From Flavobacteriaceae bacterium (GTDB taxonomy: Bacteria; Bacteroidota; Bacteroidia; Flavobacteriales; Flavobacteriaceae), in the NCBI GenBank assembly GCA_029243245.1, contig JAQWSK010000013.1, forward strand, positions 16,025 to 80,024: a stretch of 64,000 bases of DNA. The letters run 5' to 3'. The position numbers and the translations under genes were made by a program. The notes under the pieces are model-generated. The model saw only the letters and a program-made list of their open reading frames with translations. It made no database searches and had not been told where the DNA came from. Each line of letters opens with the position of its first letter. Position 1 is the stretch's first letter. Of the stretch, positions 14,123-49,296 are shown piece after piece.

Positions 14123-14590
14123 ATGAAATGGTTTGTACTTTATACAAAGCCAAACTTTGAAATCAAAGTAGCGCAAGGGATTAAAGCTCTTGGGATTAAT
14201 GCATACTGCCCCGTTTACACCCAAATAAAACAATATTCTGATCGTAAAAAAAAAATTGAAAAACCCTTGCTGCCCTCTTATGTGCTAGTAGAACTATCTG
14301 AGAAAGATCGACCAAAAGTTTTTACAATCTACGGAGTGGTACGTTATCTTTTTTGGTTAGGAAAACCAGCAGAAGTAAGGGAGGAAGATATAGAATTGTT
14401 AAAAAGCAATTTAAACGGATGTTATGATGACATATTAATTTCTAAACTATCAAAAGGAAAAGAATATACCATTTCTTCAGGACCCTTAAAAGGGCAAACA
14501 GGAAAGGTTTTAGATATACTAAAGAATAAATTAAGGTTAGAGCTCTCTAGTTTAGGAATCTTGGTTACGCTTACAAGAGGAGCAGCTTAA
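14123..14590 (+). CDS. UpxY-family (NusG/RfaH-like) transcription antiterminator
   Basis: NGN-type N-terminus MKWFVLYTKPNFEIKVAQGIKALGINAYCPVY and a KOW-like C-terminus GKEYTISSGPLKGQTGKVL. It is the first gene of a long unidirectional polysaccharide locus, as in Bacteroides capsule loci. Confidence 0.8.
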   Translation: MKWFVLYTKPNFEIKVAQGIKALGINAYCPVYTQIKQYSDRKKKIEKPLLPSYVLVELSEKDRPKVFTIYGVVRYLFWLGKPAEVREEDIELLKSNLNGCYDDILISKLSKGKEYTISSGPLKGQTGKVLDILKNKLRLELSSLGILVTLTRGAA

Positions 14591-15980: not shown

Positions 15981-17342
15981 ATGCATATAAAAAATATTTG
16001 TTGTATTGGAGCTGGATATGTAGGGGGGCCAACTATGGCAGTAATCGCTTTAAAGTGCCCTGACATTAAAGTGACAGTTGTTGATTTAAATAAAGAACGA
16101 ATTGCAGAATGGAACGGTCCTTTGGAAAACCTTCCTGTATTTGAACCCGGTTTACAGGAGGTGGTTAAAGAAGCTAGAGGACGAAATCTATTTTTCTCAA
16201 CAGAAGTAAATAAATTCATTAATGAGGCGGAAATGATTTTTATGGCCGTAAATACGCCAACTAAAACTGAGGGTGAGGGTGCAGGTATGGCTGCAGATCT
16301 TCGACATGTTGAGGCCTGTGCTAAAATGATTGCTAAGGTCGCCAAAACAGGTAAGATTGTTGTTGAAAAATCGACCTTACCAGTTCGAACAGCAGAAAAA
16401 ATAAAAGAAATATTAAATATCGAGGGGAACGGAATTCATTTCGAAATTTTATCAAACCCTGAATTCTTAGCTGAAGGAACAGCCATTAATGACCTTTTTA
16501 AATCAGATCGAGTATTAATTGGCGGGGATGACACTTTAAAAGGAAAAGAGGCTGTAAACGCCCTAGTTGATATTTATTCAAACTGGATTCCTAGAGAAAA
16601 AATATTAACAACAAATGTTTGGTCGTCTGAACTTGCAAAATTAGCTTCCAATGCCATGCTAGCACAAAGAATATCTTCCATTAATAGTCTTTCAGCACTT
16701 TGCGAAAAAACAGGAGCAGATATTGATGAGCTATCAAAAGCCGTTGGGATGGACCACAGAATTGGTTCTCATTTTTTAAAGGCTTCTGTTGGATTTGGAG
16801 GAAGTTGTTTTCAAAAGGATATTTTAAATTTGGTATATCTATGTCGTCATTACGGATTAGATGAAGTTGCACAATATTGGTATCAGGTAGTCAAAATTAA
16901 TGACTATCAAAAAAATCGTTTTGCTCAAAAGATTATTGATGGTTTAGGAGGAGGCGTAAAAGATAAAAGGATTGCTATTCTAGGATGGGCGTTTAAAGCA
17001 AACACGAATGATAGTAGGGAGAGCCCTGCCATCTATGTGGTTTTAAGATTACTAGAGTTAGGCGCTATTCTGCAGATCTATGACCCAATGGTTTCAGAAA
17101 AAAGAATTAAGGATGATTTAAAAAGACTATATAAAGATCAAAAGAAAGCAAACTCAAATATAGAATTTATCTTAGAAAAAGTCACTGTTTTCGAGAATAT
17201 TGAAGAGACTATTAATAATTCTAAAGCTATAGGGGTTTTAACAGATTGGGAGGAATTCAAATATATAAAATGGCCATCACAACTTTTAGTTTTTGATGGA
17301 AGAAATATTATTGAAAACGCATTCTATTCAATTGGAAAATAA
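15981..17342 (+). CDS. ugd: UDP-glucose 6-dehydrogenase (eukaryote-like long form)
   Basis: ICCIGAGYVGGPTMAVIALKCPDIKVTVVD and the catalytic-Cys region GFGGSCFQKDI. The N-terminus is very similar to animal UGDH. Confidence 0.9.
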   Translation: MHIKNICCIGAGYVGGPTMAVIALKCPDIKVTVVDLNKERIAEWNGPLENLPVFEPGLQEVVKEARGRNLFFSTEVNKFINEAEMIFMAVNTPTKTEGEGAGMAADLRHVEACAKMIAKVAKTGKIVVEKSTLPVRTAEKIKEILNIEGNGIHFEILSNPEFLAEGTAINDLFKSDRVLIGGDDTLKGKEAVNALVDIYSNWIPREKILTTNVWSSELAKLASNAMLAQRISSINSLSALCEKTGADIDELSKAVGMDHRIGSHFLKASVGFGGSCFQKDILNLVYLCRHYGLDEVAQYWYQVVKINDYQKNRFAQKIIDGLGGGVKDKRIAILGWAFKANTNDSRESPAIYVVLRLLELGAILQIYDPMVSEKRIKDDLKRLYKDQKKANSNIEFILEKVTVFENIEETINNSKAIGVLTDWEEFKYIKWPSQLLVFDGRNIIENAFYSIGK

Positions 17343-19064
17343 ATGAAAAATATTTTTTTTAAATTAAATTTCATTATTACTAGTAAAAGAAGATTACAAC
17401 TTCTTGTATTGATTTTTCTTTTACTAGTAGGAATAATTTTAGAAATTTTTGGAATTACAATGATTCTTCCAATTATTGGTTTTATATCTGATGAAAAAGT
17501 ATTTGAAAATTATCCAAAATTAATTAACTTTTTGAATAACCTTAATCTAAATAGCAGTATAAGTATCCAAATATTTTTATTGATAACCTTAGGAGTTGTT
17601 TATTTTATAAAAACCTTTTTTCTTATTGTATTAAGTTTTTTTCAAAACAAATTTATTTATGTTACAATCAGAGATTTACATAATTCTCTTTTTAAATCAT
17701 ACATAAACCAACCATATGAAACTTTTCATAAAAAAAATTCTTCTGATTATATAAAAGTCCTTCAAACTGAAACAGGCTATTTTACTACATATTTAGGTGC
17801 AATTATTAATCTAATTACTGAGTCAGCACTTTCATTAGCTGTTTTGTTAGTGTTAATTTATATTGAGCCTATTGGTGCATTTACTTTAGTCACTTTTTTC
17901 TTAATAGTATCATATTCTTTTTATCAATTAACAAGAGGCAAATTAAAAATTTGGGGAACTTCAAGAGAAAAGTTAGACAGAAATATTTCTCAAATTATTC
18001 ACGAAGGGTTTAGTAACATAAGAGAAATAAAAATTTTTGATACAAGTACTTATTTTTTAAACAAATTAAAAAACAATAATTTTCTTAAAGCTAAAATTAC
18101 TTATTTACAGACAACACTAATTCAATCTCCAAGATTTTTTTTAGAATTAGTTTCAGTTATTGGATTAATCTTATTCATATTATCTTTAATTTTTCAAGAA
18201 TCAGATTTAAATAAACTTATTTCTACACTCGGAGTATTCGTTGCAGGATCTTTTAGAATATTACCATCTTTAAATAGAATTATTACTTCAAGACAATATT
18301 TAAAATATTATGACAACATTTTAGATGTTATATATAATGAACTACATGGAGCAAATGATAATTTAAAAGAAGAATTACCTCCCATTAGATTTAATGAAAA
18401 AATTCATTTTTCTAATATTTCATTTAAATATCTAGGAACTGAAAAAAATGTTCTAGAGAACATTAACATGGAAATTAAAAAAGGGTCGTTAGTAGGAGTA
18501 ATTGGTGATTCAGGCTCTGGTAAAAGCACATTAATAGATATTTTATCAGGACTCTTAAAACTTCAGGGTGGAGAGATAAGAATTGATAATAAAAAACTAG
18601 ATTTTGACAACTATAGTCTTTCAAGAATTATCGGCTATGTAAGTCAGAGAACAAATTTATTAGATAGTACAATTATTGAAAACATAGCTTTTGGTGATAT
18701 AGATCCCAATATAGAAGAAGTTAAAAACTCTTTAATAGATTCTCAACTCATGGAGTTTATAAACACATTACCTAATGGAATATATACAAAAATTGGAGAG
18801 AATGGTGTAAATTTTTCTGGTGGACAAATACAACGAATTTCAATTGCTAGAGCATTATATAGAAAGCCTCAAATTTTAATTTTTGACGAAGCAACTAGTG
18901 CTTTGGATAGTAATACAGAAAGAAAACTTATTGAATCAATAGGTAAATTAAAAGGTAAAATGACAATTATTATGATAGCACATAGACTTACTTCCTTAAG
19001 TAAATGTGATTACGTTTATGAACTTAAAAAATCTAACATTATTCTTAAAAACAATATAAAATGA
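17343..19064 (+). CDS. ABC half-transporter (fused TMD-NBD exporter, MsbA/PglK-like)
   Basis: Six N-terminal TM segments, then Walker A GDSGSGKSTL, signature FSGGQIQRISIARAL and Walker B ILIFDEATSALD. Confidence 0.85.
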   Translation: MKNIFFKLNFIITSKRRLQLLVLIFLLLVGIILEIFGITMILPIIGFISDEKVFENYPKLINFLNNLNLNSSISIQIFLLITLGVVYFIKTFFLIVLSFFQNKFIYVTIRDLHNSLFKSYINQPYETFHKKNSSDYIKVLQTETGYFTTYLGAIINLITESALSLAVLLVLIYIEPIGAFTLVTFFLIVSYSFYQLTRGKLKIWGTSREKLDRNISQIIHEGFSNIREIKIFDTSTYFLNKLKNNNFLKAKITYLQTTLIQSPRFFLELVSVIGLILFILSLIFQESDLNKLISTLGVFVAGSFRILPSLNRIITSRQYLKYYDNILDVIYNELHGANDNLKEELPPIRFNEKIHFSNISFKYLGTEKNVLENINMEIKKGSLVGVIGDSGSGKSTLIDILSGLLKLQGGEIRIDNKKLDFDNYSLSRIIGYVSQRTNLLDSTIIENIAFGDIDPNIEEVKNSLIDSQLMEFINTLPNGIYTKIGENGVNFSGGQIQRISIARALYRKPQILIFDEATSALDSNTERKLIESIGKLKGKMTIIMIAHRLTSLSKCDYVYELKKSNIILKNNIK

Positions 19065-19834
19065 AAGTTGTAATTCTTGCAGGGGGACTAGGCACACGTT
19101 TATCAGAAGAAACAGATGTAAAACCAAAGCCAATGGTCGAAATAGGTGGTATGCCAATTATTTGGCATATTATGAAAATATACTCATATTATGGATATAA
19201 TGATTTTTTGATTTGTTTGGGATATAAGGGTTATGTTATAAAAGAATTTTTTGCAAATTATTTTCTACATAGAACAGATGTCACCATAGACCTTAAAGCA
19301 AATCAAATTTTAGAACATAGCACTGATACAGAACCTTGGAAAATAACCTTGGTTGACACAGGAAAAGATTCTATGACAGGAGGAAGAATAAAAAGAATCC
19401 AAAAACATATTGGAAAAGCTACTTTCATGTTAACCTATGGTGATGGTGTTAGTAATGTAAACATCAATGAATTAATTGCCCAACATAACAATAATGATTC
19501 AGCCTGTACGATCACTTCGGTTCAACCTCCAGCCCGATTTGGAGCCCTCCTGATTGACTCACAAAATAAGATCAATTCATTCCATGAAAAGCCTAAAGGG
19601 GATGGCGTATGGATCAATGGTGGTTTTATGGTTTGTGAACCAGAAGTGTTTGATTATATTGAAAATGACGCTACAAATTGGGAACAATATTCTTTACCAA
19701 AATTAGCTGAAGAAGGAAAACTTTCGTCTTATAAGCATTCAGGTTTTTGGAGACCAATGGACACCTTACAAGATAAATATAAGCTGAACGATCTTTGGAA
19801 ATCGAATAATCCTCAATGGAAACTATGGGATTGA
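19061..19834 (+). CDS. rfbF: Glucose-1-phosphate cytidylyltransferase
   Basis: VILAGGLGTRLSEETDVKPKPMVEIGGMPIIWHIMK, 257 aa. ATGA overlap with the ABC gene. Confidence 0.9.
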   Translation: MKVVILAGGLGTRLSEETDVKPKPMVEIGGMPIIWHIMKIYSYYGYNDFLICLGYKGYVIKEFFANYFLHRTDVTIDLKANQILEHSTDTEPWKITLVDTGKDSMTGGRIKRIQKHIGKATFMLTYGDGVSNVNINELIAQHNNNDSACTITSVQPPARFGALLIDSQNKINSFHEKPKGDGVWINGGFMVCEPEVFDYIENDATNWEQYSLPKLAEEGKLSSYKHSGFWRPMDTLQDKYKLNDLWKSNNPQWKLWD

Positions 19835-20886
19835 TAAATGCTTTAAATCAATTTAAGAATAAAAAAATTTTTATTACCGGTCATACTGGTTTTAAAGGCT
19901 CTTGGTTGACCTTTCTTTTAGATCATTATGGAGCTATTACCAGAGGATATGCCCTTAAACCTAAAACAAACCCTTCTCTTTATTTAAAACTTACTTTCAG
20001 CAAGAAACATTCATCTATTTATGCAGACATCAATGATTTTAATAGATTACAAAAAGAAGTTATATCTTTTAAACCAGATTTTATTTTTCATCTAGCAGCA
20101 CAGCCTATTGTATTGCAATCCTATGAAGATCCAAGAACAACGTTTAACACTAATTTTAACGGGACCTTAAACCTTTTAGAGGTTTTAAGGAACGGAGCAC
20201 TTTCTTGTACAGCAATTTTTATAACAACGGATAAAGTTTATGAAAACAAAGAATTAAATATTGCTTTTTCTGAAGAAGATAAATTGGGAGGAAATGATCC
20301 TTATAGCGCTAGTAAAGCTGCTTGTGAGATATTAATTCACTCTTATCAAAGATCATTTTTTAAAGATTCAAAAATAAATATTGCTAGTGTTCGTGCTGGT
20401 AATGTAATAGGTGGAGGAGATTGGTCTGAAAACAGATTGATACCTGATATTATTCATTCTGTTTTTAATAAAAAGCCCTTAGAAATCAGAAACCTAAAGG
20501 CGACAAGACCTTGGCAGCATGTTTTAGAGCCTTTATACGGTTATTTGATGTTAGCAACAGCTTTATCAAAAAACCCATCAATCTATTCAACAGCATGGAA
20601 TTTTGGACCAGAAATTGAGGATGTTAAGACTGTAAAAGAAATTATTCAGATTGCAAAAACTTTTGATTTTCAAATAAAAATGCAAAGTGTTAAAAATGTT
20701 AAAAAACAAGAAGCAAAATACTTATCCTTAAACATTGATAAAGTAAAACAAAAATTAAATTGGAATCCTAAGTGGAATTCTGAATTAGCCATTCAGAAGA
20801 CTCTAAATTGGTATCAAAAATTTTATCAAGGTGAAACCGCAAATAAACTTATTGAAGAAAATTTAAAAATGTATAATAATATTTAA
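19816..20886 (+). CDS. rfbG: CDP-glucose 4,6-dehydratase
   Basis: SDR Rossmann motif KIFITGHTGFKGSWL and YxxxK in YSASKAACE. Length and position after rfbF fit. The start may be Met4 (19825). Confidence 0.85.
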   Translation: METMGLINALNQFKNKKIFITGHTGFKGSWLTFLLDHYGAITRGYALKPKTNPSLYLKLTFSKKHSSIYADINDFNRLQKEVISFKPDFIFHLAAQPIVLQSYEDPRTTFNTNFNGTLNLLEVLRNGALSCTAIFITTDKVYENKELNIAFSEEDKLGGNDPYSASKAACEILIHSYQRSFFKDSKINIASVRAGNVIGGGDWSENRLIPDIIHSVFNKKPLEIRNLKATRPWQHVLEPLYGYLMLATALSKNPSIYSTAWNFGPEIEDVKTVKEIIQIAKTFDFQIKMQSVKNVKKQEAKYLSLNIDKVKQKLNWNPKWNSELAIQKTLNWYQKFYQGETANKLIEENLKMYNNI

Positions 20887-22196
20887 TGAAAGAATTTAAA
20901 AATATAAACGAAACACTTAGAAATTCCTTAGAAGAAGTCATTAAAAATAATGTGTCTAAAAAGATCAAACCGGGAGAAGACTATATATCAGTTACTGGAA
21001 AAATGATCGATTCAAATGATATTCTATATGGCGTAGATGCAACTCTTGATGGTTGGTTAACAACGGGAAGATATGCCAAGCAATTTGAAACAAAATTAGC
21101 TACCTATATTGGGGCTAAAAAATCCATTTTGGTAAACTCAGGCTCCTCTGCAAATCTGGTTGCTTTTTATACTTTAACATCTCCTTCGTTAGGAAAAAGA
21201 GCTATACAAAAAGGCGATGAGGTGATTACTGTTGCAGCTGGTTTTCCAACCACTATAAATCCGCTAATTCAATATGGATGTGTGCCTGTTTTTGTTGATA
21301 TAGAAATTCCTACTTATAATATTGACGTGAATCAAATAGAAGCTGCTATATCACCGAAGACAAAAGCTATTATGATTGCCCATTCATTGGGAAACCCTTT
21401 TAATCTCAGAGTGGTTAAAGAAATTACAGATAAATATAAGTTATGGCTTATTGAGGACGATTGTGATTCTTTAGGCGCAACCTATGATGGAAATAAAACA
21501 GGATCTTTTGGTGATGCTGCAACCGTATCTTTTTATCCCGCACATCATATTACAATGGGAGAAGGAGGAGCAGTTTTAATTAACAACAGAAAATTACAAA
21601 TGCCTGCATTAAGTTTAAGAGACTGGGGAAGAGCTTGTTATTGTGATACCGGTTGTGATAATACGTGTAACAAACGATTTGATTGGCAGCTGGGAGACCT
21701 ACCTCAAGGCTATGATCATAAATATATCTATTCTCATATAGGATTTAATTTAAAAGTCACCGATACACAAGCTGCTATTGGCTTGAATCAATTGTCTAAA
21801 GTGGATCATTTCGTTCAAAAACGAAGAGAAAATCACAAAATTCTTAAAGAACTTTTCAAGTCGTTAGAAGAGCATTTTATTCTTCCTGAACCTACTCCCA
21901 ACAGTAACCCTAGTTGGTTTGGATTTATGTTAACTGTAAGAGATCCAAAATATATTGATCGGAATAAATTGGTACGTTACTTGGAGAACCAAAAAATTGG
22001 CACACGTTTATTTTTTGGAGGAAATATCCTCAAGCAACCTGCTTATAAAAATATTTCAAAAAGACTAATTGGAGAATTAATTAATTCAGATAAGGCAATG
22101 AATGATTCATTCTGGATTGGAGTTTGGCCTGGAATAGAAAAGATTCATCTAGAGTATATAAAAAACAAATTAGATAAATATATTTCAAACATATGA
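20886..22196 (+). CDS. rfbH: CDP-6-deoxy-L-threo-D-glycero-4-hexulose 3-dehydrase (E1, RfbH/DdhC type)
   Basis: DegT-fold protein in which the Schiff-base Lys is replaced by His (SFYPAHHITMGEGG), plus Cys cluster RACYCDTGCDNTC. Both are E1 hallmarks. Confidence 0.85.
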   Translation: MKEFKNINETLRNSLEEVIKNNVSKKIKPGEDYISVTGKMIDSNDILYGVDATLDGWLTTGRYAKQFETKLATYIGAKKSILVNSGSSANLVAFYTLTSPSLGKRAIQKGDEVITVAAGFPTTINPLIQYGCVPVFVDIEIPTYNIDVNQIEAAISPKTKAIMIAHSLGNPFNLRVVKEITDKYKLWLIEDDCDSLGATYDGNKTGSFGDAATVSFYPAHHITMGEGGAVLINNRKLQMPALSLRDWGRACYCDTGCDNTCNKRFDWQLGDLPQGYDHKYIYSHIGFNLKVTDTQAAIGLNQLSKVDHFVQKRRENHKILKELFKSLEEHFILPEPTPNSNPSWFGFMLTVRDPKYIDRNKLVRYLENQKIGTRLFFGGNILKQPAYKNISKRLIGELINSDKAMNDSFWIGVWPGIEKIHLEYIKNKLDKYISNI

Positions 22197-23983
22197 AAAC
22201 AAAAGTAAGCGATGTTATTGCTAGGTTTCTAAAAGAAAAAAAAATTGAAGTAGTTTTTGGAATTATTGGGTCTGCAAATTCTCACATATTTGATTCAATA
22301 AATAACTTGGGTTTTACTCAGATTGTTAACACACACCATGAGCAGGTTGCTGTAATGGCAGCCGGAGCATATTTTAGATCATCTGGAAAACTTTCGGCAG
22401 CAATTGTGACTGCTGGGGCAGGAGCAAGTAATGCGATAACAGGGGTAATTAGTAATTGGGCAGATTCAACTCCATGTTTAATAATTTCAGGTCAAGAACC
22501 TATACGATATGTTAAAAAAAATGAATCTTTAAGAATGTATGGGACACAAGGATTTAACATTATAAAGATGATTAAAGATGTTGTTAAATACGGTGTTTCA
22601 ATTGCGGATCCAAAAGAGATCTATACAGAATTAAGTAAAATTTACAGGCATACAACCGAAGGAAGACCAGGACCATGTTGGGTAGATATTCCTTTTGATA
22701 TTCAAGGAAGATTTGTTGAAGATATTGATTTTCCTGTTTTTGAAGAAATTAATACTGAGTCATTTATGGATGAGGCTAAATCTGTAATTGAATCTTTAAA
22801 AAAAAGCAAAAGACCAGTAATATTGGGAGGGAATGGGATTAAACTATCTAACGGAAAATCAGAATTTCAAAAATTTACTAGTGCTATTAAAGCTCCTACT
22901 CTATTGACTTGGTCTGGAATAGATTTGTTAAATGATGACAATCCAGAATTTTTTGGAAGGTTTGGCATTTATGGTCAGCGATGTGCAAATTTTATTATAC
23001 AGAACTCTGATCTAGTTTTGGTCTTTGGAAGTCGTTTAGCTCTCCCTCAAATTGGTTATGATATTGGCCAGTTTGCAAGAAGCGCTAAAATAATTATAAT
23101 TGATATTGATGAGACAGAAGGTAATAAGTATGATGTTCATAAATTTATAGAAGCTGATTGTAAAACATTTTTAAATGATTTAAATACCTTGATAACGGGA
23201 ATGCTATTTGACTTTTCAAAATGGACAGAATATTGTTCAAAGTTAAAAATAGAATTTCCATTGATTGGAAAAGAACATGAAACAAAAGGTTATGAAAACT
23301 CCTACAAGTTTATAGACACTTTTTCTGATCTTTTAGGAAATGATGACATCATTGTTACTGATATGGGAACTGCTTTGCTCAGTGGTCACCAAGCAATAAA
23401 GCTGAAGTCAAATCAAATAATGTTTACTTCGCTTGGCCTTGGCGAAATGGGTTATGGATTAGCGGGAGCTATTGGAGCTAGTTTTGCGTGTCCAAGCCGT
23501 CAAGTGATTTGTTTGAATTGTGATGGTGGAATTATGATGAACCTTCAAGAACTACATACAATTGTTGAAAATAAACTTAAAATCAAAATTGTCATATTTA
23601 ATAATGATGGATATTTAATGATCAAACATACACAAAAAATGTTGTTCAAAGGAAATTATAATAGTGTTAATAAAAACACAGGGATAGGGCTTCCAAATTT
23701 TGAAAAATTATTACCCGCTTTCGGATATAACTACTATTGTTTTGACGAAAATGCTAGAGAGAATTCAATTACAGCATTTTTGGAAGATCCCAATCAGTCT
23801 GTTTTAGAGGTGTTTATGCATCCAGAACAGGGATTCTTACCTAAAGTTAAAGGAGTTTTAAATAACGATAACACTATTTTATCTCCTCCTTTAGAAGAAA
23901 TGTCACCAATTATACCCTTAGATCTTCTCAAAGAGAAGATGTTAATTGAATTAGATGATAAATCATATAAAATAAAAAGATGA
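22193..23983 (+). CDS. Thiamine-diphosphate-dependent enzyme, acetolactate-synthase large-subunit-like (YerE-like candidate)
   Basis: 596 aa. ThDP-binding motif region GLGEMGYGLAGAIGAS...CLNCDGGIMMNLQEL...IFNNDGY. ATGA overlaps at both ends. Confidence 0.8.
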   Translation: MKTKVSDVIARFLKEKKIEVVFGIIGSANSHIFDSINNLGFTQIVNTHHEQVAVMAAGAYFRSSGKLSAAIVTAGAGASNAITGVISNWADSTPCLIISGQEPIRYVKKNESLRMYGTQGFNIIKMIKDVVKYGVSIADPKEIYTELSKIYRHTTEGRPGPCWVDIPFDIQGRFVEDIDFPVFEEINTESFMDEAKSVIESLKKSKRPVILGGNGIKLSNGKSEFQKFTSAIKAPTLLTWSGIDLLNDDNPEFFGRFGIYGQRCANFIIQNSDLVLVFGSRLALPQIGYDIGQFARSAKIIIIDIDETEGNKYDVHKFIEADCKTFLNDLNTLITGMLFDFSKWTEYCSKLKIEFPLIGKEHETKGYENSYKFIDTFSDLLGNDDIIVTDMGTALLSGHQAIKLKSNQIMFTSLGLGEMGYGLAGAIGASFACPSRQVICLNCDGGIMMNLQELHTIVENKLKIKIVIFNNDGYLMIKHTQKMLFKGNYNSVNKNTGIGLPNFEKLLPAFGYNYYCFDENARENSITAFLEDPNQSVLEVFMHPEQGFLPKVKGVLNNDNTILSPPLEEMSPIIPLDLLKEKMLIELDDKSYKIKR

Positions 23984-24825
23984 TTAGGGCAGGAATTATT
24001 GGTACTGGAAATATAGGGACTGATTTGTTATTGAAATTAATAAAAACTGATTTTATAAATCTAGTAATATTTTCAGGCAGAAGATTAAATTCAAATGGCA
24101 TGAAAGTTGCCAAAAAAAATAACATCGAAATAACAGATACTGGAATTCAATTTTTCATTGATAATCCTAATTTTTGCGATGTGATATATGATTGTACAAA
24201 TGCGTTCGATGCTAAAAAACACGCTAGAATATTTGATAAACAGCAAATTAAAGTAATTGATTTAACCCCAGCTAAGGTTGGAGCTTTTAGCGTACCAAGT
24301 TTAAATATACCTATTAATGAAATGAATATAAATATGATAACATGTGGTGGTCAAGCATCAATTCCTTTATTACATTCAATCTCAAAACATTGTGATAAGT
24401 TATCTTATATTGAGGTTGTTTCACAAATTGCATCAGATAGTGCAGGTATGGCAACTAGACTTAATATTGATAATTATATAGAAACTACAGAGAATGCAAT
24501 TTTTCAATTTACCGGCACTGAAAAATGTAAAGTAATATTGAATTTGAACCCTGCTATACCACAAGTAGATATGCAAACAACAATGTTTGTTAAAGCCAAT
24601 AGTTTTGATTTTGAACCATTGGTAGGAAATATTTATGAAAAAATAATGGATCTCAGAAAATATATTTCTCATTATGAATTAGTTATGCCTCCCACTATAA
24701 ACAACAATATTTTGGTTTTAAGTGTAAGAGTTAAAGGAGCTGGTGATTACCTTCCCAAATATGCGGGGAATCTAGATATTATTAATTGTGCTGCTATTGA
24801 AGCGACAAAGAAAATGTATGAATGA
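23980..24825 (+). CDS. Acetaldehyde dehydrogenase (acylating), DmpF/MhpF family
   Basis: RAGIIGTGNIGTDLLLKL (NAD fold) and the catalytic-Cys motif MITCGGQASIPL. About 280 aa. Confidence 0.8.
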   Translation: MIRAGIIGTGNIGTDLLLKLIKTDFINLVIFSGRRLNSNGMKVAKKNNIEITDTGIQFFIDNPNFCDVIYDCTNAFDAKKHARIFDKQQIKVIDLTPAKVGAFSVPSLNIPINEMNINMITCGGQASIPLLHSISKHCDKLSYIEVVSQIASDSAGMATRLNIDNYIETTENAIFQFTGTEKCKVILNLNPAIPQVDMQTTMFVKANSFDFEPLVGNIYEKIMDLRKYISHYELVMPPTINNNILVLSVRVKGAGDYLPKYAGNLDIINCAAIEATKKMYE

Positions 24826-25831
24826 AATCATTATAACGGATTCTAGTCTAAGAGACGGAAACCATAGCGTAAAGCACCAAATTAGTTTAAAAAGCATCAA
24901 AAAGTATTGTCAATTTGCAGACAGTGCTAAAATACCAATTGTAGAGGTAGGACATGGTAACGGGTTAGGGGCTTCTTCAATACTTATTGGGGAATCTCCT
25001 TATTCGGATAAAGAAATATTATCTACAGCTCGAAAACATTTGATAAATTCAAAATTAGGTGTACATATTATTCCTGGCCTTGCTACAATAAGAAAAGATA
25101 TAGATCAAGCAATTGATTTAGGAGTAGATGTTTTTAGAGTTGCCTCTCATTGTACTGAAGCTACAATTACAAGGTCACACATTGAATATTTAAAAAAGAA
25201 TAACAAAACAGTCTTTGGAGTTTTAATGATGACTGCATTGACTGGTGTTAAAGAATTGGTTGTTAATGCTAAAATAATGGAAGATTATGGAGCAGAAGCA
25301 TTAATAATTATGGATTCAACAGGAACTTACCTCCCATATGATGTTGAAGAAAGAATCAGAGCTTTATCAGATAAATTATCAATTAAAATAGGTTTTCATG
25401 CACATAATAATTTGGGTATGTCTGTTTATAATTCAATAGTAGCCATTCAAAATGGGGCAACCTATATTGATGCATGCATAAGAGGATTCGGTGCTGGTGC
25501 TGGAAATACGCCGCTGGAAGTATTAGTCCCTGTAATGGAAAAATACAACTATCAATTAGACATTGATTTTAACTGTTTGATTAAAGAGGCAGACAATGTA
25601 ATGGAATATCTAATTCCAAGCACACCGCATATAAGCCCAGTAAATGTTCTTACAGGACTTAATCGTTTATTTTCTGGGTTTGAAAAACCAATAATACAAG
25701 CCTCTAAGATGAATAATTTGGAATATTCGTCTCTTATTTTTGAGTTGGGAAACCGAAAACTAGTTGCAGGTCAGGAAGATCTTATTCTTGAAATTGCTGA
25801 AAATTTTAAATCAGTAAGGAATAATGGTTAG
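24818..25831 (+). CDS. 4-hydroxy-2-oxovalerate aldolase-like (DmpG/MhpE, HMGL-like TIM barrel)
   Basis: IIITDSSLRDGNHSVKH and GFHAHNNLGMSV metal-binding motifs. I place the start at ATG 24818 (MNEIII), an 8-nt overlap with the dmpF-like gene, rather than the ORF-track start at 24788. Confidence 0.8.
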   Translation: MNEIIITDSSLRDGNHSVKHQISLKSIKKYCQFADSAKIPIVEVGHGNGLGASSILIGESPYSDKEILSTARKHLINSKLGVHIIPGLATIRKDIDQAIDLGVDVFRVASHCTEATITRSHIEYLKKNNKTVFGVLMMTALTGVKELVVNAKIMEDYGAEALIIMDSTGTYLPYDVEERIRALSDKLSIKIGFHAHNNLGMSVYNSIVAIQNGATYIDACIRGFGAGAGNTPLEVLVPVMEKYNYQLDIDFNCLIKEADNVMEYLIPSTPHISPVNVLTGLNRLFSGFEKPIIQASKMNNLEYSSLIFELGNRKLVAGQEDLILEIAENFKSVRNNG

Positions 25832-26492
25832 TAAATTGGGAATAATTTCAAAATTGAAATCTTTGAAAAGCAGTAAATCAAATACTGAAATTATAAACGT
25901 TTATAAAGGAGAAGATTTACTTTGCTATTTAAAACCTATTCAAGAAAATTTCACTGACCTCAATTATAATTTATGTTTCTTATTGTCTAAATGGAGGATA
26001 GAAAATCCAACAATTTCGACAGGAACTTTTCAAGTAACAGAAGAAAGAACTAAAAAATGGTTAATAGATTTAGTAATAAATAGAGAGGATAGATTAATAT
26101 TTATGATTCATGGATTGAATGATGATCCAATAGGTCATATAGGCTTGTCAAATATTAATTTTAGTAATAACAGCGTTGAATTAGACAGTGTGCTGAGGGG
26201 AAAAAAAAATATTTTAAAAGGACTAATGAGTCAATGCGTGAAAAGAGTTGTAAAATTTGGACTTAAAGAATTGAGATTTTCGGAAATTGACTTAAGTGTT
26301 TTCTCAGATAATAATCACGCAGTAGATTTTTATAAAAAATTAAATTTTAAAATAATTGATAAAATTCCACTTTTAAAAGTAATTAAGGACAATGAAACTA
26401 AATATGAAATTGTAAAAGACGTAAGTAATCAAAAAATAGAAAAGTATTATTTTAAAATGAGATTTCAAAAAGAACTTCAAAAGAAAATATAA
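25824..26492 (+). CDS. GNAT-family N-acetyl/acyl-transferase
   Basis: HIGLSNINFSNNSVELDSVLRG...AVDFYKKLNFKI resembles RimL/WecD-type GNAT motifs A/B. 8-nt overlap with the upstream gene. Confidence 0.6.
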   Translation: MVSKLGIISKLKSLKSSKSNTEIINVYKGEDLLCYLKPIQENFTDLNYNLCFLLSKWRIENPTISTGTFQVTEERTKKWLIDLVINREDRLIFMIHGLNDDPIGHIGLSNINFSNNSVELDSVLRGKKNILKGLMSQCVKRVVKFGLKELRFSEIDLSVFSDNNHAVDFYKKLNFKIIDKIPLLKVIKDNETKYEIVKDVSNQKIEKYYFKMRFQKELQKKI

Positions 26493-27635
26493 ATGGATCT
26501 GAATGCATTAACTCAATCTGAAATAAGGAATATGACCCTCGAGTGTGATAAAATTGGAGGAATTAATTTATCACAAGGCATTAGTAACCTGAAATTAGAT
26601 GTAACCCTTTCAAATCAAGCTAATGAATCAATCCTTAATGGATATAATTATTACACTCAATTTGATGGAGTAGACGAATTAAAAAAAGCGATATGTGCTA
26701 AGGCTCAAAATTATAATAATATAACTTGTGATAGTTCTAAAAATATTGTTGTTTCTTCTGGAGCAACAGGGGCTTTTTATTCTTCATGTTTCGCTTTGTT
26801 AAAGCCCGAAGATGAAGTAATAGTATTCGAACCTTTTTATGGTTATCATGTTAATACGTTACGAGCCGTTGGAGTAAGACCAATTTTTGTGAGTTTAGAA
26901 CTACCAACTCTTCAAATTAATTATGATGAGATTATTAAAAGAATCACGAAAAAAACTAAAGCAATTTTAATATGTACACCCGCTAATCCATCTGGAAAAA
27001 TATTTTCTGAACAAGAATTATTAAAACTGGGGGAAATCTGCAAGACCCATAATTTGTTAGTATTCACAGATGAAATTTATGAATATTTCTTGTATGACGG
27101 GAAAAAGCATATTAGTCCAGCTTCACTAGAGATCTTCAAAGATAATACAATTACCATATCAGGGTTTTCTAAAACATTCAGCATAACTGGTTGGAGAGTT
27201 GGATACTGCATTGTTCCTGAAGAATATCATGAAATAATAGGACATATAAGTGATTTAATATATGTATGTAGTCCTTCACCATTTCAATATGCAGTTGCCC
27301 AAGGAATTAATAAAATTGGGGATTCTTTTTACATGAACATCATAAATAACTTTACTAAAAAAAGAAACTTATTGTCTGATACATTAACTGATATCAGATT
27401 AACGCCTCTTATTCCGGAAGGAGCTTATTATATTCTAGCAGATGTATCTCCTGTAAAGGGAGATTCAATAAAAGAGAAGGCAATGAGGATTTTAGATCAA
27501 ACTAAAATTGCTTGTGTTCCAGGCTCAGCTTTTTATTCCTCTAAAAAAGGGAATAATATAGTTAGGTTTTGTTTTGCTAAAGAAGATTATGAATTAGAAA
27601 AAGCATGTGAAAATTTATTAAAATTAAAAATATGA
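26493..27635 (+). CDS. Class I/II (aspartate-type) PLP aminotransferase
   Basis: PLP-lysine motif ISGFSKTFSITGWRVGYC and PANPSGK upstream of it. Confidence 0.8.
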   Translation: MDLNALTQSEIRNMTLECDKIGGINLSQGISNLKLDVTLSNQANESILNGYNYYTQFDGVDELKKAICAKAQNYNNITCDSSKNIVVSSGATGAFYSSCFALLKPEDEVIVFEPFYGYHVNTLRAVGVRPIFVSLELPTLQINYDEIIKRITKKTKAILICTPANPSGKIFSEQELLKLGEICKTHNLLVFTDEIYEYFLYDGKKHISPASLEIFKDNTITISGFSKTFSITGWRVGYCIVPEEYHEIIGHISDLIYVCSPSPFQYAVAQGINKIGDSFYMNIINNFTKKRNLLSDTLTDIRLTPLIPEGAYYILADVSPVKGDSIKEKAMRILDQTKIACVPGSAFYSSKKGNNIVRFCFAKEDYELEKACENLLKLKI

Positions 27636-28738
27636 GAAAAAAAATCCCTTTCGCAGGTCCTTCAATAACACAAAAGGAAATTGATTATGTAATAGATGGA
27701 GTCAAAAATGGTTTTTATGAAACTTTTAATATGCATGTTGAAAAATTAGAAACAGAAATTTCAGATTACTGTGGCACTGAATATGCAATTGCTACTCATA
27801 CTTGTACGCTAGCAATGCATTTAGCTTGTCTATGTTTAGACCTAAAAGAAGACGATGAGGTTATTTGTACTGATTTTTCATGGGTTGCAACTGCCTATGC
27901 AATTTCGTACACAGGAGCAACACCAATATTGGTTGATATTGACCCTGACACATGGTGTATTGATCCAAAAAAAATTAAAAGTGCTATTACAAATAAAACA
28001 AAAGCAATTATGTTAGTTCATTCTTTTGGAGTGCCTGCTAAAATGGATGAAATCATGGCTATTGCAAAAGAATATAACCTTAAGGTTATTGAAGATGCAG
28101 CTCCCTCACTAGGCGCAGAGTTTAATGGAAAAAAAGTAGGGTCATTTGGGGATTTTGGTTGTTTTAGCTTTCATGGTGCTAAAATTGCTGTTACAGGTGA
28201 AGGGGGAATGCTTTTGACAAATAATAAAAAACTATATGAGAAAGCCAGATTGTTTGTTGCAATGGGAAGAACAGATCGCAAAGCAGTATTCTGGTCTGAT
28301 AGTATTGGTTATCAATATACAATGGGAAACTTAACAGCGGCTCTAGCTTTAGCTCAAGTTCAACGGATAGAAGAACTTGTGTCCATGAAGAGATCAATAT
28401 TTGACAGATATGAAAAAAACCTTTCAGGAATTGAAGGTATTAAGATGATAAAAGAAAAAGAAAATACTAGAGCTAATTATTGCTATCCTTCTCTTCTTCT
28501 TCAACCCTCAATTAAAACAAATAGAGATGACATATTAAAACATTTTAAAGAGAACAATATTCATGCAAGACCCGGTTTTCCTAGAATGAGTGAATTCCCT
28601 TCCCTTAAAAAAACCTATGAAAACCCAGTTGCAGAAATGGCTGAAAAAAGAGGAATTTCACTTCCTTCAGCAGCAAACATAACAAATAATGATATTGATT
28701 TTGTATGTGAAAGATTAATTTATATGATCAAAAACTAA
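27632..28738 (+). CDS. DegT/DnrJ/EryC1/StrS-family sugar aminotransferase
   Basis: GCFSFHGAKIAVTGEGGML with the PLP Lys retained. 368 aa. Confidence 0.85.
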   Translation: MRKKIPFAGPSITQKEIDYVIDGVKNGFYETFNMHVEKLETEISDYCGTEYAIATHTCTLAMHLACLCLDLKEDDEVICTDFSWVATAYAISYTGATPILVDIDPDTWCIDPKKIKSAITNKTKAIMLVHSFGVPAKMDEIMAIAKEYNLKVIEDAAPSLGAEFNGKKVGSFGDFGCFSFHGAKIAVTGEGGMLLTNNKKLYEKARLFVAMGRTDRKAVFWSDSIGYQYTMGNLTAALALAQVQRIEELVSMKRSIFDRYEKNLSGIEGIKMIKEKENTRANYCYPSLLLQPSIKTNRDDILKHFKENNIHARPGFPRMSEFPSLKKTYENPVAEMAEKRGISLPSAANITNNDIDFVCERLIYMIKN

Positions 28739-28748
28739 TTAATTTAAA

Positions 28749-29804
28749 ATGAATCGACTTTCTCAAATTAAACTATCAATCATAATTGCTACTTTTAATA
28801 GGGAAAAAAGACTTAAAAAGAGTCTTCCATTGTTGTTGTCTGAAGATTCAGATCAATTTGAATTTATAATTATTGACAATAATTCTTCTGATAAAACTCA
28901 GCAATTAGTTTCCTCTTTTTCTAAAAATGACAATAGGATAAGATACTTTAAAAATCATTCAAACATTGGAGCTAATAGAAATTATTATAGAGGATATTTA
29001 GAGGCGAAATCAAATTGGATTTGTTTTATGTCGGACGACGATTTTATTCAACATGGGTTTTTGTCTGAACTTATTCAAATAATAGATAAAAATCAAGATT
29101 GTGGTTTAATCATAAACTCAAATGATAATAGTGGTGATCTTAATCTAACTCAATCCAGAAGAATTAAATCAGGAATAGATGCTTTAAAACTTTCATTTAA
29201 GCTTTCGGGAGTTTTAACTGGATTAACTATTAACAAGAAACTTATTAAACAAGAATACTGGACTCTAGACAACAGTATATATCCACAGATAAGCTTGGCT
29301 TCAAATTTATCATTAAAGAATGACTTATATATAAACATTCCTAAAAATAAAATTATAATTGGTAAAGAGGACACTATTAATTTTATAATTAGTAATAGAC
29401 CTCTAGATTTAGGAATATTTGAAAGATTAGAAATTCTTTTGCAGGTGTCAAATAATTTAAATAATAATCAACGATTAAAATTTATAAATTCTTTATCAGT
29501 CACATTGTTTAATTGGGCAATTAATACTTCAAAAGAAATGTATTCAGTAAATAAAAATTATAGTTTATTTTTTTTAAAAAATCTGATGAAAAACTCTTTT
29601 ATAAAGAGTTCTATTTCCTTTCACGTAATTTTAATTATTAAATATATTTTTAATAAAAAAATTAATTTAATAATTAAAATTACAATTGGATTACACATTT
29701 TAAAATCTCTTTTTTTATCAATATTTAATAAAAATTTATACCAAAGTCTTTATTATACAGCTTATAACTTTAATAATAAAAAATTGAAAAATTTAAAGAC
29801 ATGA
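28749..29804 (+). CDS. Glycosyltransferase family 2
   Basis: LSIIIATFNREKRL, FIIIDNNSSDKT and CFMSDDDF (DxD region). Confidence 0.75.
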   Translation: MNRLSQIKLSIIIATFNREKRLKKSLPLLLSEDSDQFEFIIIDNNSSDKTQQLVSSFSKNDNRIRYFKNHSNIGANRNYYRGYLEAKSNWICFMSDDDFIQHGFLSELIQIIDKNQDCGLIINSNDNSGDLNLTQSRRIKSGIDALKLSFKLSGVLTGLTINKKLIKQEYWTLDNSIYPQISLASNLSLKNDLYINIPKNKIIIGKEDTINFIISNRPLDLGIFERLEILLQVSNNLNNNQRLKFINSLSVTLFNWAINTSKEMYSVNKNYSLFFLKNLMKNSFIKSSISFHVILIIKYIFNKKINLIIKITIGLHILKSLFLSIFNKNLYQSLYYTAYNFNNKKLKNLKT

Positions 29805-30703
29805 AAATTATTAGCAAACTAAATTTATTTTTAAAAAATAATAATCTTAAATTCAATTATGTTGATGTAGGTGCTAGATGGGATATTTCTAATTTATGGA
29901 AAAAATTAGAAGATAATACCAGAGTTTTTGGTTTTGAGACTGATCCAGATGAAATAAAAGTATTAAAGAAACAATTTCCATCAAGAACTTATTATGAATT
30001 TGGTTTATGGAGCAAAGAAGAAAATTTAAAACTATATATAACAAAAAATGCTGCATCTTCATCAATATATAAGCCTAATTTAGTTGAAAATCAAAAGTAT
30101 AAGATTAAATATCATGATGGTCGAAATTTGAATAAAGCAGTAAATGTAAAATGTAAAAAAATGGATGATTTATTAGAAATCATCCCTGACTTTATAAAAA
30201 TTGACACTCAGGGCTCTGAATATGAAATAATTAAGGGATCCAAAAAACTACTTATTTCTAACTGTCCTTTGGTTTCCCTTGAAACTTGGACAAGAGATGT
30301 TTATAAAAACTCTCCAAGAATGGATCAAATAATTTCATTAATGTATGAGTATGGTTATGAAATTCTGGATATGGAATTGTGTGCTTCAGAAAAACATAAA
30401 ACTAGGTTTAAAACAATTTCCAAACAAACAATTAGTGGATATGAAATTACATTTGGGAAGAAAAACCTTGAAGATATTGAAGATTTTAATTCAAAAATAA
30501 AATATGTTTTATTGCTTGATCTTTTTGGTTATAAGGACATGTCGTTATACTTAAATGAAAATTATATTAAAAATTCGGACATAAACTCATACTTATTATC
30601 CAGTAGTAGAGTAAAAAATAATTTTGGTGTATTATTTAGAAAATTTATAAAAATCTTTTGGATGAGAGTCATAGGAGAACCTTATTTTAAGATTAGTGAC
30701 TAA
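29801..30703 (+). CDS. FkbM-family methyltransferase
   Basis: FIKIDTQGSEYEIIKGS is the FkbM-type motif. ATGA overlap with the GT2 gene. Confidence 0.7.
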   Translation: MKIISKLNLFLKNNNLKFNYVDVGARWDISNLWKKLEDNTRVFGFETDPDEIKVLKKQFPSRTYYEFGLWSKEENLKLYITKNAASSSIYKPNLVENQKYKIKYHDGRNLNKAVNVKCKKMDDLLEIIPDFIKIDTQGSEYEIIKGSKKLLISNCPLVSLETWTRDVYKNSPRMDQIISLMYEYGYEILDMELCASEKHKTRFKTISKQTISGYEITFGKKNLEDIEDFNSKIKYVLLLDLFGYKDMSLYLNENYIKNSDINSYLLSSSRVKNNFGVLFRKFIKIFWMRVIGEPYFKISD

Positions 30704-48734: not shown

Positions 48735-49296
48735 GACCACCGAATTCAAAGATGTTCTAAAAATAACAACTAAATCTTTTAAAGATGATAGGGGATCTGT
48801 TCGTGAGAACTTTCGTTTGGATAAGCTTGAAAATTTTATTGAAAGAAAAATATTCTTTTGTCAAGATAATTTATCACATTCTAAAAAAGGAGTAATTAGA
48901 GGTCTCCATTATCAAACACATCCATATAGCCAATCAAAATTGGTATCTGTCATTAAAGGAGAAGTGTTGGATGTTATTGTTGACATTAGAAAGGGTTCTT
49001 CAAATTTTGGAAAGCACATTTCGTTTAAGCTTAACGAACATAATCAACAACATTTATTTATTCCGAGAGGTTTCGCTCATGGATATATCACTCTTAGTGA
49101 TGAATCTATTTTTCATTATAAAGTTGACAATTATTATAATAAGATTAGTGAGGGAAGTATAGCTTTTGACGATTTAAAACTTAAAATTAACTGGAGATTA
49201 CCAAAATCTGAATGGATTATTTCAGAAAAAGATCAAAACCACCCTGTTTTAGATAAAGCTGAGTTGTTTGATTATAATTCTAATCTATATGATTAA
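48724..49296 (+). CDS. rfbC: dTDP-4-dehydrorhamnose 3,5-epimerase
   Basis: GVIRGLHYQ and IPRGFAHGY. Confidence 0.9.
   Translation: MIIETTEFKDVLKITTKSFKDDRGSVRENFRLDKLENFIERKIFFCQDNLSHSKKGVIRGLHYQTHPYSQSKLVSVIKGEVLDVIVDIRKGSSNFGKHISFKLNEHNQQHLFIPRGFAHGYITLSDESIFHYKVDNYYNKISEGSIAFDDLKLKINWRLPKSEWIISEKDQNHPVLDKAELFDYNSNLYD

Follow-up and report, generated by a model that had tools for sequence, protein, structure and literature searches.

A probable erwiniose-type pathway for a C4-branched, possibly amino-tailored 3,6-dideoxyhexose in a Flavobacteriaceae glycan locus

Organisation of the gene block

A block of nine genes was analysed in a 64-kb stretch of DNA from an uncultured Flavobacteriaceae bacterium (contig JAQWSK010000013.1, positions 16,025 to 80,024). 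This whole stretch of 64,000 nucleotides is referred to as the window, and all positions are given within it. According to the window ORF listing, the nine open reading frames (ORFs) all lie on the plus strand and span 19061-28738. They encode RfbF, RfbG and RfbH, a thiamine diphosphate (ThDP)-dependent enzyme, relatives of the acylating dehydrogenase DmpF and the aldolase DmpG, a GNAT acyltransferase, a class I aminotransferase and a DegT-family aminotransferase, here called DegT1. Families were assigned by Pfam and NCBIfam profile searches with equivalog cut-offs and by a search against PDB chains (Table 1). On balance, these assignments favour an erwiniose-type pathway for a C4-acyl-branched 3,6-dideoxyhexose that is subsequently amino-tailored, and we consider this the probable function of the block.

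The genes overlap by 4 nt at rfbH/ThDP, ThDP/dmpF and the junction of the two aminotransferases, and by 8 nt at dmpF/dmpG (with the gene callers' ATG at 24818) and dmpG/GNAT. The nine-gene block is translationally coupled. Related loci were drawn from metagenome and viral collections; a scan of the genome collection with the ThDP protein gave three loci. The complete block recurs on the independent metagenome contigs L018, L019 and L023 at 58-85% protein identity, and hence its composition is not a chance arrangement.

RfbF, RfbG and RfbH each score above their NCBIfam equivalog cut-offs. The initial annotation of this DNA had recognised the E1 hallmarks of RfbH, namely His in place of the pyridoxal phosphate (PLP) Lys and a Cys cluster. 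Both are confirmed by alignment with Yersinia E1 (PDB 3bcx, 543 bits), in which SFYPAHHITMGEGGA is identical, with His at the position of the PLP Lys, and the C-x-C-x7-C motif of the [2Fe-2S] cluster (CYC..GCDNTC) is kept.

Table 1. Features of the gene block and its immediate surroundings (window positions).
Feature	Position	Strand	Basis
UpxY-family transcription antiterminator, head of polysaccharide locus	14123..14590	+	NF033644 113.9 bits vs cut-off 100; Pfam NusG
UDP-glucose/GDP-mannose dehydrogenase (Ugd-like)	15981..17342	+	three UDPG_MGDP_dh domains; kept 5' of same block in L019, L023
PglK/MsbA-like ABC exporter, probable lipid-linked glycan flippase	17343..19064	+	ABC_membrane and ABC_tran; stop overlaps rfbF start
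RfbF, glucose-1-phosphate cytidylyltransferase	19061..19834	+	TIGR02623 413 bits vs cut-off 300
RfbG, CDP-glucose 4,6-dehydratase	19816..20886	+	TIGR02622 443 bits vs cut-off 278
RfbH/E1, pyridoxamine phosphate (PMP)- and [2Fe-2S]-dependent CDP-4-keto-6-deoxyglucose 3-dehydrase	20886..22196	+	NF011936 682 bits vs cut-off 423
YerE/ErwE-like ThDP-dependent carboligase, JanthE CDG-motif type	22193..23983	+	596 aa; three TPP domains
ErwJ/DmpF-like acylating acetaldehyde dehydrogenase (acetyl-CoA to acetaldehyde)	23980..24825	+	TIGR03215 300 bits vs cut-off 282
ErwI/DmpG-like class II pyruvate aldolase	24818..25831	+	TIGR03217 322 bits vs cut-off 286
GNAT N-acyltransferase, weakly PseH-like	25824..26492	+	Pfam Acetyltransf_1/3/4
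Class I aminotransferase, subgroup KAT/MetAT/DapC-like	26493..27635	+	Aminotran_1_2 203 bits
DegT1, DegT-family nucleotide-sugar aminotransferase, perosamine-synthetase/LegC-like	27632..28738	+	DegT_DnrJ_EryC1 348 bits
GT2 glycosyltransferase, candidate transferase for the product	28749..29804	+	Glycos_transf_2; GT2 follows block in L016, L019, L023
FkbM-family methyltransferase	29801..30703	+	Methyltransf_21

The probable branch-forming core

The 596-residue ThDP enzyme had been described initially as YerE-like and not as a housekeeping acetolactate synthase (ALS), a view with which both the profile cut-offs and the ranking of PDB chains agree. It falls below every ALS cut-off (best TIGR00118, 311.8 bits versus 538.35), is about 30% identical to annotated ilvB genes, and no ilvN/ilvH-like small-subunit ORF adjoins its gene in the window ORF listing. 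A comparison of the ORF at 22193 with YerE and with IlvB/IlvI placed JanthE first (PDB 8rph, 549 bits, 43.6% identity over 590 residues), followed by PpYerE (5ahk, 251 bits); true ALS chains reached at most 229 bits. As a negative control, the plasmid and phage GenBank collections returned only IlvB-like matches at about 30% identity. The enzyme carries the LNCDGGIMMNLQEL block with LNCDGG, in which Cys replaces the first Gly of the G-D-G ThDP motif; this CDG motif is present in 113 of its 120 closest homologues. The structure 8rph is that of JanthE from Janthinobacterium sp. HH01, a YerE-like enzyme with the unusual CDG motif, according to PMC12188165, which also reports that it accepts 4-hydroxy-2-oxovalerate and states that its physiological substrates are unknown. 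Judged by its sequence, the window protein belongs with the YerE-like, CDG-motif lyases typified by JanthE and is not an ALS. It is predicted to decarboxylate 4-hydroxy-2-oxopentanoate and to add the resulting acyl anion to C4 of a keto sugar. The locus context suggests physiological substrates for the CDG-type JanthE family.

The DmpF-like protein matches PDB 7z3s (222 bits) and DmpF itself (1nvm_B, 168 bits) and conserves ITCGGQASIP with the nucleophilic Cys. Its partner matches 8ih7 (231 bits) and 1nvm (218 bits), contains LRDGNHSV and FHAHNNLGM, and is 34% identical to DmpG. Aligned to 1nvm, it keeps the DmpG residues Arg17, Asp18, His21, His200 and His202. At the positions of DmpG Leu88 and Tyr291, equivalent to Leu87 and Tyr290 of BphI, the window aldolase has His83 and Phe285. 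Wild-type BphI is strictly 4S; the Y290F exchange abolishes stereocontrol, and the double variants L87N/Y290F and L87W/Y290F are 4R-specific (PMC3962088). In the ThDP-linked aldolases of the fetched loci, the BphI Leu87 site is His in 89 out of 89, and the Tyr290 site holds Phe in 66, His in 14 and Met in 9 of them, with no Tyr in any. The four solved catabolic aldolases have Leu or Met at the first site and Tyr at the second. Among representatives of the whole family, His/Phe is dominant at 39% identity or more to the window aldolase, and Leu/Tyr is found only at 37% or less. As far as can be judged from these alignments, the His/non-Tyr signature marks a glycan-specific aldolase clade. We infer that His83 and Phe285 would direct the enzyme to 4R 4-hydroxy-2-oxopentanoate; the signature agrees with the demand of the erwiniose enzyme ErwE for the 4R acid, described below. 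The residue pair could serve as a simple sequence test for glycan-type (predicted 4R) versus catabolic (4S) aldolases. As a natural signature that mirrors the engineered stereo-inversion of BphI, it may also be useful for biocatalysis. One further glycan locus (L103:2090-7413) combines a DmpF/DmpG pair of the His/Phe type, divergent from an NTP-transferase – HpcH/HpaI aldolase – ThDP enzyme series. Two different pyruvate aldolases beside one ThDP enzyme hint at a longer or doubly extended branch in that locus.

A chance placement of a housekeeping ALS and a catabolic meta-cleavage DmpFG pair beside rfb genes would account for two observations: the NCBIfam models that score highest for the 596-residue protein are named acetolactate synthase, and both DmpF and DmpG exceed the equivalog cut-offs of their families. 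Against it stand the ALS score of 312 versus 538 with no small subunit, the 549 bits to JanthE, the uninterrupted series of start/stop overlaps that joins these genes to rfbFGH, the conservation of the synteny in more than 80 glycan loci and an aldolase that lacks the catabolic Leu/Tyr pair. Moreover, no meta-cleavage genes were found in the 64-kb window by Pfam among ORFs of at least 120 aa (a few nested short ORFs were not scanned), as had been noted at the outset. As far as sequence can decide, we therefore reject this explanation, to which we assign practically no probability, on profile cut-offs, PDB ranking, context and residue signature. The idea that the pair is dedicated to glycan synthesis holds: the pair falls in a distinct clade, is always found in glycan loci and has no catabolic neighbours.

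A pathway with the same core has been described for Pectobacterium atrosepticum SCRI1043 (Steitz et al. 2022, PMC9306805). Its erwiniose cluster encodes the ThDP enzyme ErwE, the reductase ErwF, BphJ-like ErwJ and BphI-like ErwI, and adjoins genes for CDP-4-keto-3,6-dideoxyglucose. ErwJ converts acetyl-CoA to acetaldehyde, which ErwI joins with pyruvate to (R)-4-hydroxy-2-oxopentanoate. In vitro, ErwE rejected pyruvate, selected the (4R) acid and coupled it to a keto-sugar analogue. The branch ketone is then reduced by ErwF, and erwiniose carries a C-branch (PMC9306805). Recruitment of a catabolic-type pair to sugar synthesis, as proposed in the initial annotation, is thus correct, whereas its novelty was overstated, since the combination of rfbFGH, ThDP and dmpFG genes was described in 2022 (PMC9306805). 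On the role of the pair, the initial annotation was imprecise: following the published scheme, the pair would make 4-hydroxy-2-oxopentanoate, itself the donor of the ThDP enzyme, and would pass on neither acetaldehyde nor pyruvate.

By analogy, RfbF, RfbG and RfbH would convert glucose-1-phosphate to CDP-4-keto-3,6-dideoxy-D-glucose, a conversion that needs an E3-type electron donor whose gene would lie elsewhere. The DmpF-like enzyme would reduce acetyl-CoA to acetaldehyde, and the DmpG-like aldolase would condense it with pyruvate to 4-hydroxy-2-oxopentanoate, with predicted 4R configuration. The CDG-type ThDP enzyme would decarboxylate this keto acid and transfer the 3-hydroxybutanoyl anion equivalent to the C4 ketone, giving a tertiary alcohol that bears a keto branch. 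From homology and published biochemistry, it is highly probable that the branch-forming core operates in this way.

The ThDP–DmpF–DmpG triad is widespread. Apart from the window, its synteny is kept in more than 80 glycan loci from Flavobacteriaceae, Ignavibacteria, freshwater and viral contigs. They include a TARA contig (L016, 84% ThDP identity), an Ignavibacteria metagenome-assembled genome (MAG) and unassigned freshwater contigs with flanking short-chain dehydrogenases/reductases (SDRs) at 62-63% ThDP identity. The triad also surrounds an aldolase 46% identical to that of the window. A search for the synteny of rfbFGH, ThDP and dmpFG genes, which the initial annotation had suggested, therefore found the triad in many places and the same complete block on the three contigs named above. 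In IMG/VR, 110 viral contigs carry ThDP relatives, of which 80 were fetched (L105-L184). DmpF was found in 71 of these, DmpG in 70, an E1/ColD-like dehydratase in 65 and Gmd in 26; several of the triad contigs are giant-virus MAG contigs, and some of the viral genomes (UViGs) reach 183 kb. The usual companions of the viral triads are a ColD/E1-like 3-dehydratase and SDRs; Gmd is a frequent further neighbour and points to GDP-4-keto-3,6-dideoxymannose as a possible acceptor. No mention of virus-encoded synthesis of C4-branched sugars was found in the literature searched. The triad was also seen in L013-L015 and L017.

It is conceivable that the same enzymes make an acyl donor instead of a branch. 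DmpG would form 4-hydroxy-2-oxopentanoate, the ThDP enzyme would release 3-hydroxybutanal, and DmpF would oxidise it to 3-hydroxybutyryl-CoA, redox-balanced against the reduction of acetyl-CoA. The GNAT could then acylate a 4-amino sugar from DegT1 to an N-(3-hydroxybutyryl) amino sugar. Acylating aldehyde dehydrogenases are reversible, N-3-hydroxybutyryl amino sugars are frequent in O-antigens, and a GNAT and a C4-type DegT protein are encoded in the operon; the reasoning in favour is built on these points. We nevertheless consider this route very unlikely. In L016 and in about 70 viral loci, the triad is accompanied by SDRs, and neither an aminotransferase nor a GNAT is present, so that N-acylation cannot be its function there. 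In addition, the published reaction of ErwE is a carboligation onto a ketone, and erwiniose is C-branched (PMC9306805).

Proposed fate of the branch ketone

The closest locus, L016, shares the frame of the window block. Its order is ABC exporter, RfbF, RfbG, RfbH, SDR, FkbM, ThDP, DmpF, DmpG and GT2, without GNAT or aminotransferases. In the window, the genes for GNAT, class I aminotransferase and DegT1 are inserted between those of DmpG and GT2, and no SDR is encoded in 19061-30703. An orthologue of the L016 reductase (L016_SDR348) is absent from the window, where its best match is RmlB with 27%; the other window SDRs are Gmd, an Fcl-like protein, RmlB and RmlD. A similar exchange is found across the survey. 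ThDP loci flanked by 3 kb or more on either side were compared for a reductase-like SDR no further than 4 kb from the ThDP gene. Such an SDR is present in one of the eight loci that have the aminotransferase pair, versus 58 of the 66 that lack it (Fisher p = 2.6e-5, a value that overstates the evidence because the loci are related to one another). None of the 80 fetched IMG/VR contigs has the aminotransferase cassette. In an Ignavibacteria locus (L020), orthologues of both aminotransferases occur with rfbF/G/H, a split transketolase and a formyltransferase. This pairing supports a cassette that takes over the fate of the branch ketone by transamination and subsequent N-acylation.

Since the SDR of the erwiniose pathway is missing and GNAT, class I aminotransferase and DegT1 are present, the branch ketone is most likely transaminated, probably by DegT1, and then N-acetylated by the GNAT. 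The adjacent GT2 enzyme would transfer the product, CDP-3,6-dideoxy-4-C-(1-acetamido-3-hydroxybutyl)hexose. We put forward this amino tailoring, and with it an N-acetylated amino-branched dideoxyhexose as product, as a tentative proposal. Possible, if rather doubtful, is the wider idea that the 4-C-(1-acetamido-3-hydroxybutyl) sugar ("amino-erwiniose") and the trio of GNAT and two aminotransferases represent a portable module, which converts ThDP-installed acyl groups to N-acylated aminoalkyl branches. If the exchange of the reductase for aminotransferases does yield an amino-branched sugar, it would bring a new class of monosaccharides to bacterial surface glycans and provide new enzymes for chiral amino-tertiary-alcohol motifs.

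Each member of the trio has a match to its Pfam family, and none corresponds to an equivalog. DegT1 matches PDB 7b0m (253 bits) and perosamine synthetase (236 bits), is LegC/PseC-like below the NCBIfam cut-off, and has an FSFHGAK lysine that aligns with the catalytic lysine of PerA. For the GNAT there are Pfam matches only, with PseH at 34 bits below its cut-off and a weak match to AAC(6'). Orthologues of the GNAT adjoin both aminotransferases in L018, L019, L022, L023, L037, L038 and L185. The link between DegT1 and the class I enzyme is tight: on contigs of at least 5 kb, 16 of the 25 top DegT1 homologues lie on a contig of the same length as one that carries a top-120 class I homologue.

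Several points weigh against the proposed amino tailoring. The nearest relatives of DegT1, perosamine synthetase and LegC/PseC, are aminotransferases of ring C4. In L185, the trio has no ThDP enzyme within 10 kb, and thus it need not act on a ThDP-made branch. The acyl branch has a single ketone, which gives no obvious need for two aminotransferases, and the family of the class I enzyme has housekeeping-like members beside murE/murF. No amino-branched sugar of this kind was found in the literature searched, which did not cover the in silico survey of more than 200 clusters. The likeness to the erwiniose cluster, with 4-hydroxy-2-oxopentanoate as predicted donor and a C4 branch, was judged by the published description. 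Finally, no ferredoxin/FNR-type (Fer2/FNR) E3 was detected in the 64-kb window within the Pfam scope given above, as the initial annotation had stated of the E3 partner. A role of the class I aminotransferase as substitute for E3 was considered and dismissed, since E3 and the aminotransferase are both missing from the sister locus L016. One weak match on the viral contig L181 aside, a single E3-like candidate was seen among the related loci examined: a 241-aa NAD_binding_1 protein beside RfbH in the Ignavibacteria locus (L020:16185-16910), possibly a truncated E3-like reductase without ferredoxin domain.

The first two of these points also fit the main rival explanation, in which two sugars arise from one node. 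DegT1 and the GNAT would act like PseC and PseH to give CDP-4-acetamido-3,4,6-trideoxyhexose, and the ThDP enzyme with DmpFG would separately form a 3-hydroxybutanoyl-branched sugar. The branch ketone would either remain or meet a reductase whose gene lies elsewhere; the class I aminotransferase would belong to another step. Weak PseH and AAC(6') matches as the only family matches of the GNAT agree with this, and in L022 the trio lies four genes from a ThDP enzyme to which an adh_short neighbour of its own belongs. Against two independent products stands the near mutual exclusion of aminotransferase cassette and branch reductase; seven of the eight aminotransferase-type loci would leave the branched sugar without a reductase. 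Furthermore, DegT1 and the ThDP enzyme would compete for one substrate within one translationally coupled operon, and a ThDP or transketolase enzyme is present in every Rfb-type locus with enough flank in the aminotransferase-centred sample. Consequently, we regard formation of two sugars as unlikely, and prefer amino tailoring of the branch.

In L185:7928-12622, on a 5.2-Mb contig (ERZ21831019 ctg34084l), the order is class I aminotransferase – GNAT – DegT, and the proteins are 52-78% identical to orthologues in other loci. Its neighbours are a 492-aa radical-SAM enzyme, two SDRs, an RmlC-like protein and a GHMP kinase. A 1,819-aa glycosyltransferase/methyltransferase/TPR protein near flaF is also close by, and the locus may be a flagellin-glycosylation island.

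The class I aminotransferase, with invariant Lys227 and Arg358, falls below all equivalog cut-offs; its best PDB match is the aromatic aminotransferase 1dju (181 bits), and kynurenine and DapC-type enzymes are also among the top matches. In 80 loci surveyed around its homologues, three settings were seen: Rfb/YerE-type loci, a very common cassette with split transketolase or pyruvate dehydrogenase (PDH)-E1, and a clade upstream of murE/murF. From this clade and the PDB matches it follows that the enzyme descends from ordinary amino-acid aminotransferases. At a guess, it works on the amino-acid/2-oxo-acid side of the pathway (recycling of the amino donor or supply of a keto acid) and not on the sugar. 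Under the more doubtful idea of a portable module, it could be a new type of nucleotide-sugar side-chain aminotransferase, or a dedicated partner through which the nitrogen and carbon skeleton of one amino acid enter the same sugar. As a supplier of keto-acid donors for every ThDP enzyme it was rejected, because this role fails beside DmpFG, which already supply the donor.

The initial annotation offered a different role for this enzyme. With DmpG running in the aldol direction, it would aminate 4-hydroxy-2-oxovalerate to 4-hydroxynorvaline, which would be amide-linked to an amino or uronic sugar. Enzymes for the 2-oxo acid and an amino-acid-type aminotransferase with the conserved carboxylate-binding Arg are encoded three genes apart, ugd is present in the locus, and the GntC family (gamma-hydroxy amino acid) is among the nearer NCBIfam matches, below its cut-off. 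The distribution of the enzyme does not bear the proposal out. Its orthologues mostly occur without DmpFG, with transketolase or PDH-E1-type ThDP enzymes, DegT and PglF or by murE/murF, and among the DmpFG-containing loci whose flanks are long enough, 58 of 62 do not have it. Its association is with DegT1 and the GNAT and not with the aldolase, and no amide ligase (ATP-grasp or similar) is encoded in the block. A 4-hydroxynorvaline product is hence highly improbable.

The very common cassette is widespread in soil and sediment and has the order (PglC-like) – split transketolase or PDH-E1 alpha/beta – DegT – class I aminotransferase – PglF-like 4,6-dehydratase. It accounts for about 35 of the 80 loci (L021, L027, L030, L031, L033, L040-L051, L060-L064, L076, L082, L097, L099 and others). 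It looks like a ThDP-dependent modification of UDP-4-keto-6-deoxy-GlcNAc, of which no description was found. In L079:9962-14260 and L095:4791-9440, class I homologues lie directly 5' of murE and murF. They share 57-58% identity with the L020 orthologue, for which the identity to the window enzyme is 57%. This clade suggests a housekeeping, possibly diaminopimelate (DAP)-related, origin from which the enzymes of glycan loci may have been recruited.

Locus setting and comparison with known systems

From its gene content, the block is part of an UpxY-controlled surface-glycan locus, in a window with a G+C content of about 30% that derives from a metagenome scaffold (ENA ERZ23487772, scaffold_88, 64,988 bp). 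A Wzy_C/TPR protein and a WecA-like transferase are encoded just 5' of this locus. The genes for the UpxY antiterminator, a cupin, a cytidylyltransferase-like protein, Ugd and the PglK-like ABC exporter precede the block in the same direction. The nearest family of the exporter, which is conserved in L016, L019 and L023, is PglK (346 bits, below cut-off). On the 3' side follow GT2, the FkbM methyltransferase, a WecE-type aminotransferase, Gmd, an Fcl-like gene, more glycosyltransferases and RmlABCD; a 300-aa FkbM protein also follows GT2 in related contigs. The WecE-type enzyme (31867-32997) is a dTDP-4-amino-4,6-dideoxygalactose transaminase (501 bits versus cut-off 375) and forms, together with RmlA, RmlC, RmlD and RmlB (47850-51150), a second, unrelated amino-sugar route. 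Because of this route, Gmd and the Fcl-like gene, the glycan probably contains several deoxy sugars.

Between 30000 and 46000, the G+C content is 22-26%, versus 29-32% in the rfb/ThDP block. It holds a polysialyltransferase-like ORF as well as genes for a PhyH-family dioxygenase and for DUF4956 and VTC-domain proteins. Two further ORFs in this region, each about 500 aa long (38883-40394 and 40394-41983), lack a Pfam match. The genes for ribosomal proteins L21 and S2 lie at 51620-52165 and 62579-63574. L21 has a C-terminal Rho_N-like extension, and S2 ends in a tail, about 100 residues long, that weakly matches the acidic-repeat family Trypan_PARP.

Pipeline names such as acetolactate synthase, acetaldehyde dehydrogenase and 4-hydroxy-2-oxovalerate aldolase wrongly imply amino-acid synthesis or aromatic catabolism. 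Reading the triad as a branched-sugar module corrects the annotation in many environmental bacteria and, judging by the IMG/VR matches, on many viral contigs. The catabolic complexes DmpFG, BphIJ and HsaFG have the same folds and belong to the same profile families, and the window pair keeps their metal-binding and catalytic residues. As in these complexes, a communication domain is present, and the two genes adjoin and overlap, as would fit products that form a channelling complex. The window pair differs in its proposed synthetic direction, in His/Phe for Leu87/Tyr290 and in the missing meta-cleavage context.

JanthE (PDB 8rph/8rpj; Lanza et al. 2024, cited in PMC12188165) shares the Cys-Asp-Gly motif and the flanking LNCDGG(I/M)MMNLQEL block with the window enzyme and is reported to accept 4-hydroxy-2-oxovalerate and ketone acceptors. 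In contrast to JanthE, whose substrates are stated to be unknown, the context of the window enzyme, with rfbFGH on the 5' and dmpFG on the 3' side, suggests both substrates. PpYerE, a solved YerE-like enzyme, has a GDG motif, unlike the CDG of the window, and scores only 251 bits. In the yersiniose A pathway of Yersinia pseudotuberculosis (YerE/YerF), the acceptor sugar and the type of ThDP-dependent C4 branching are as proposed here. YerE, however, uses pyruvate as donor, so that a C2 branch is formed without need for an aldolase/dehydrogenase pair, and this branch is reduced by YerF.

The erwiniose cluster is the closest counterpart, with acceptor genes (in the window RfbF, RfbG and RfbH), a YerE-like ThDP enzyme and a BphI-/BphJ-like pair adjacent in a glycan locus. 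It stems from Enterobacterales, whereas the window belongs to Bacteroidota and has no E3 nearby. Instead of an ErwF-type NAD(P)H reductase, the window has GNAT, class I aminotransferase and DegT1. According to a 2025 review, more than 200 YerE-like clusters have been predicted in silico, and branch ketones may be reduced, methylated, oxidised or, in kibdelomycin, transaminated (PMC12247030). The amycolose branch of kibdelomycin is thus a precedent for the conversion of a ThDP-installed acyl branch to an aminoalkyl branch (PMC12247030). It differs as a secondary metabolite of actinomycetes with a C2 branch at C3, made by an alpha-KADH2-type ThDP enzyme from a different superfamily. Taken together, the core of the window block very probably belongs to a published kind of pathway. 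What is unusual about the block is that a GNAT and two aminotransferases stand in place of the branch reductase.

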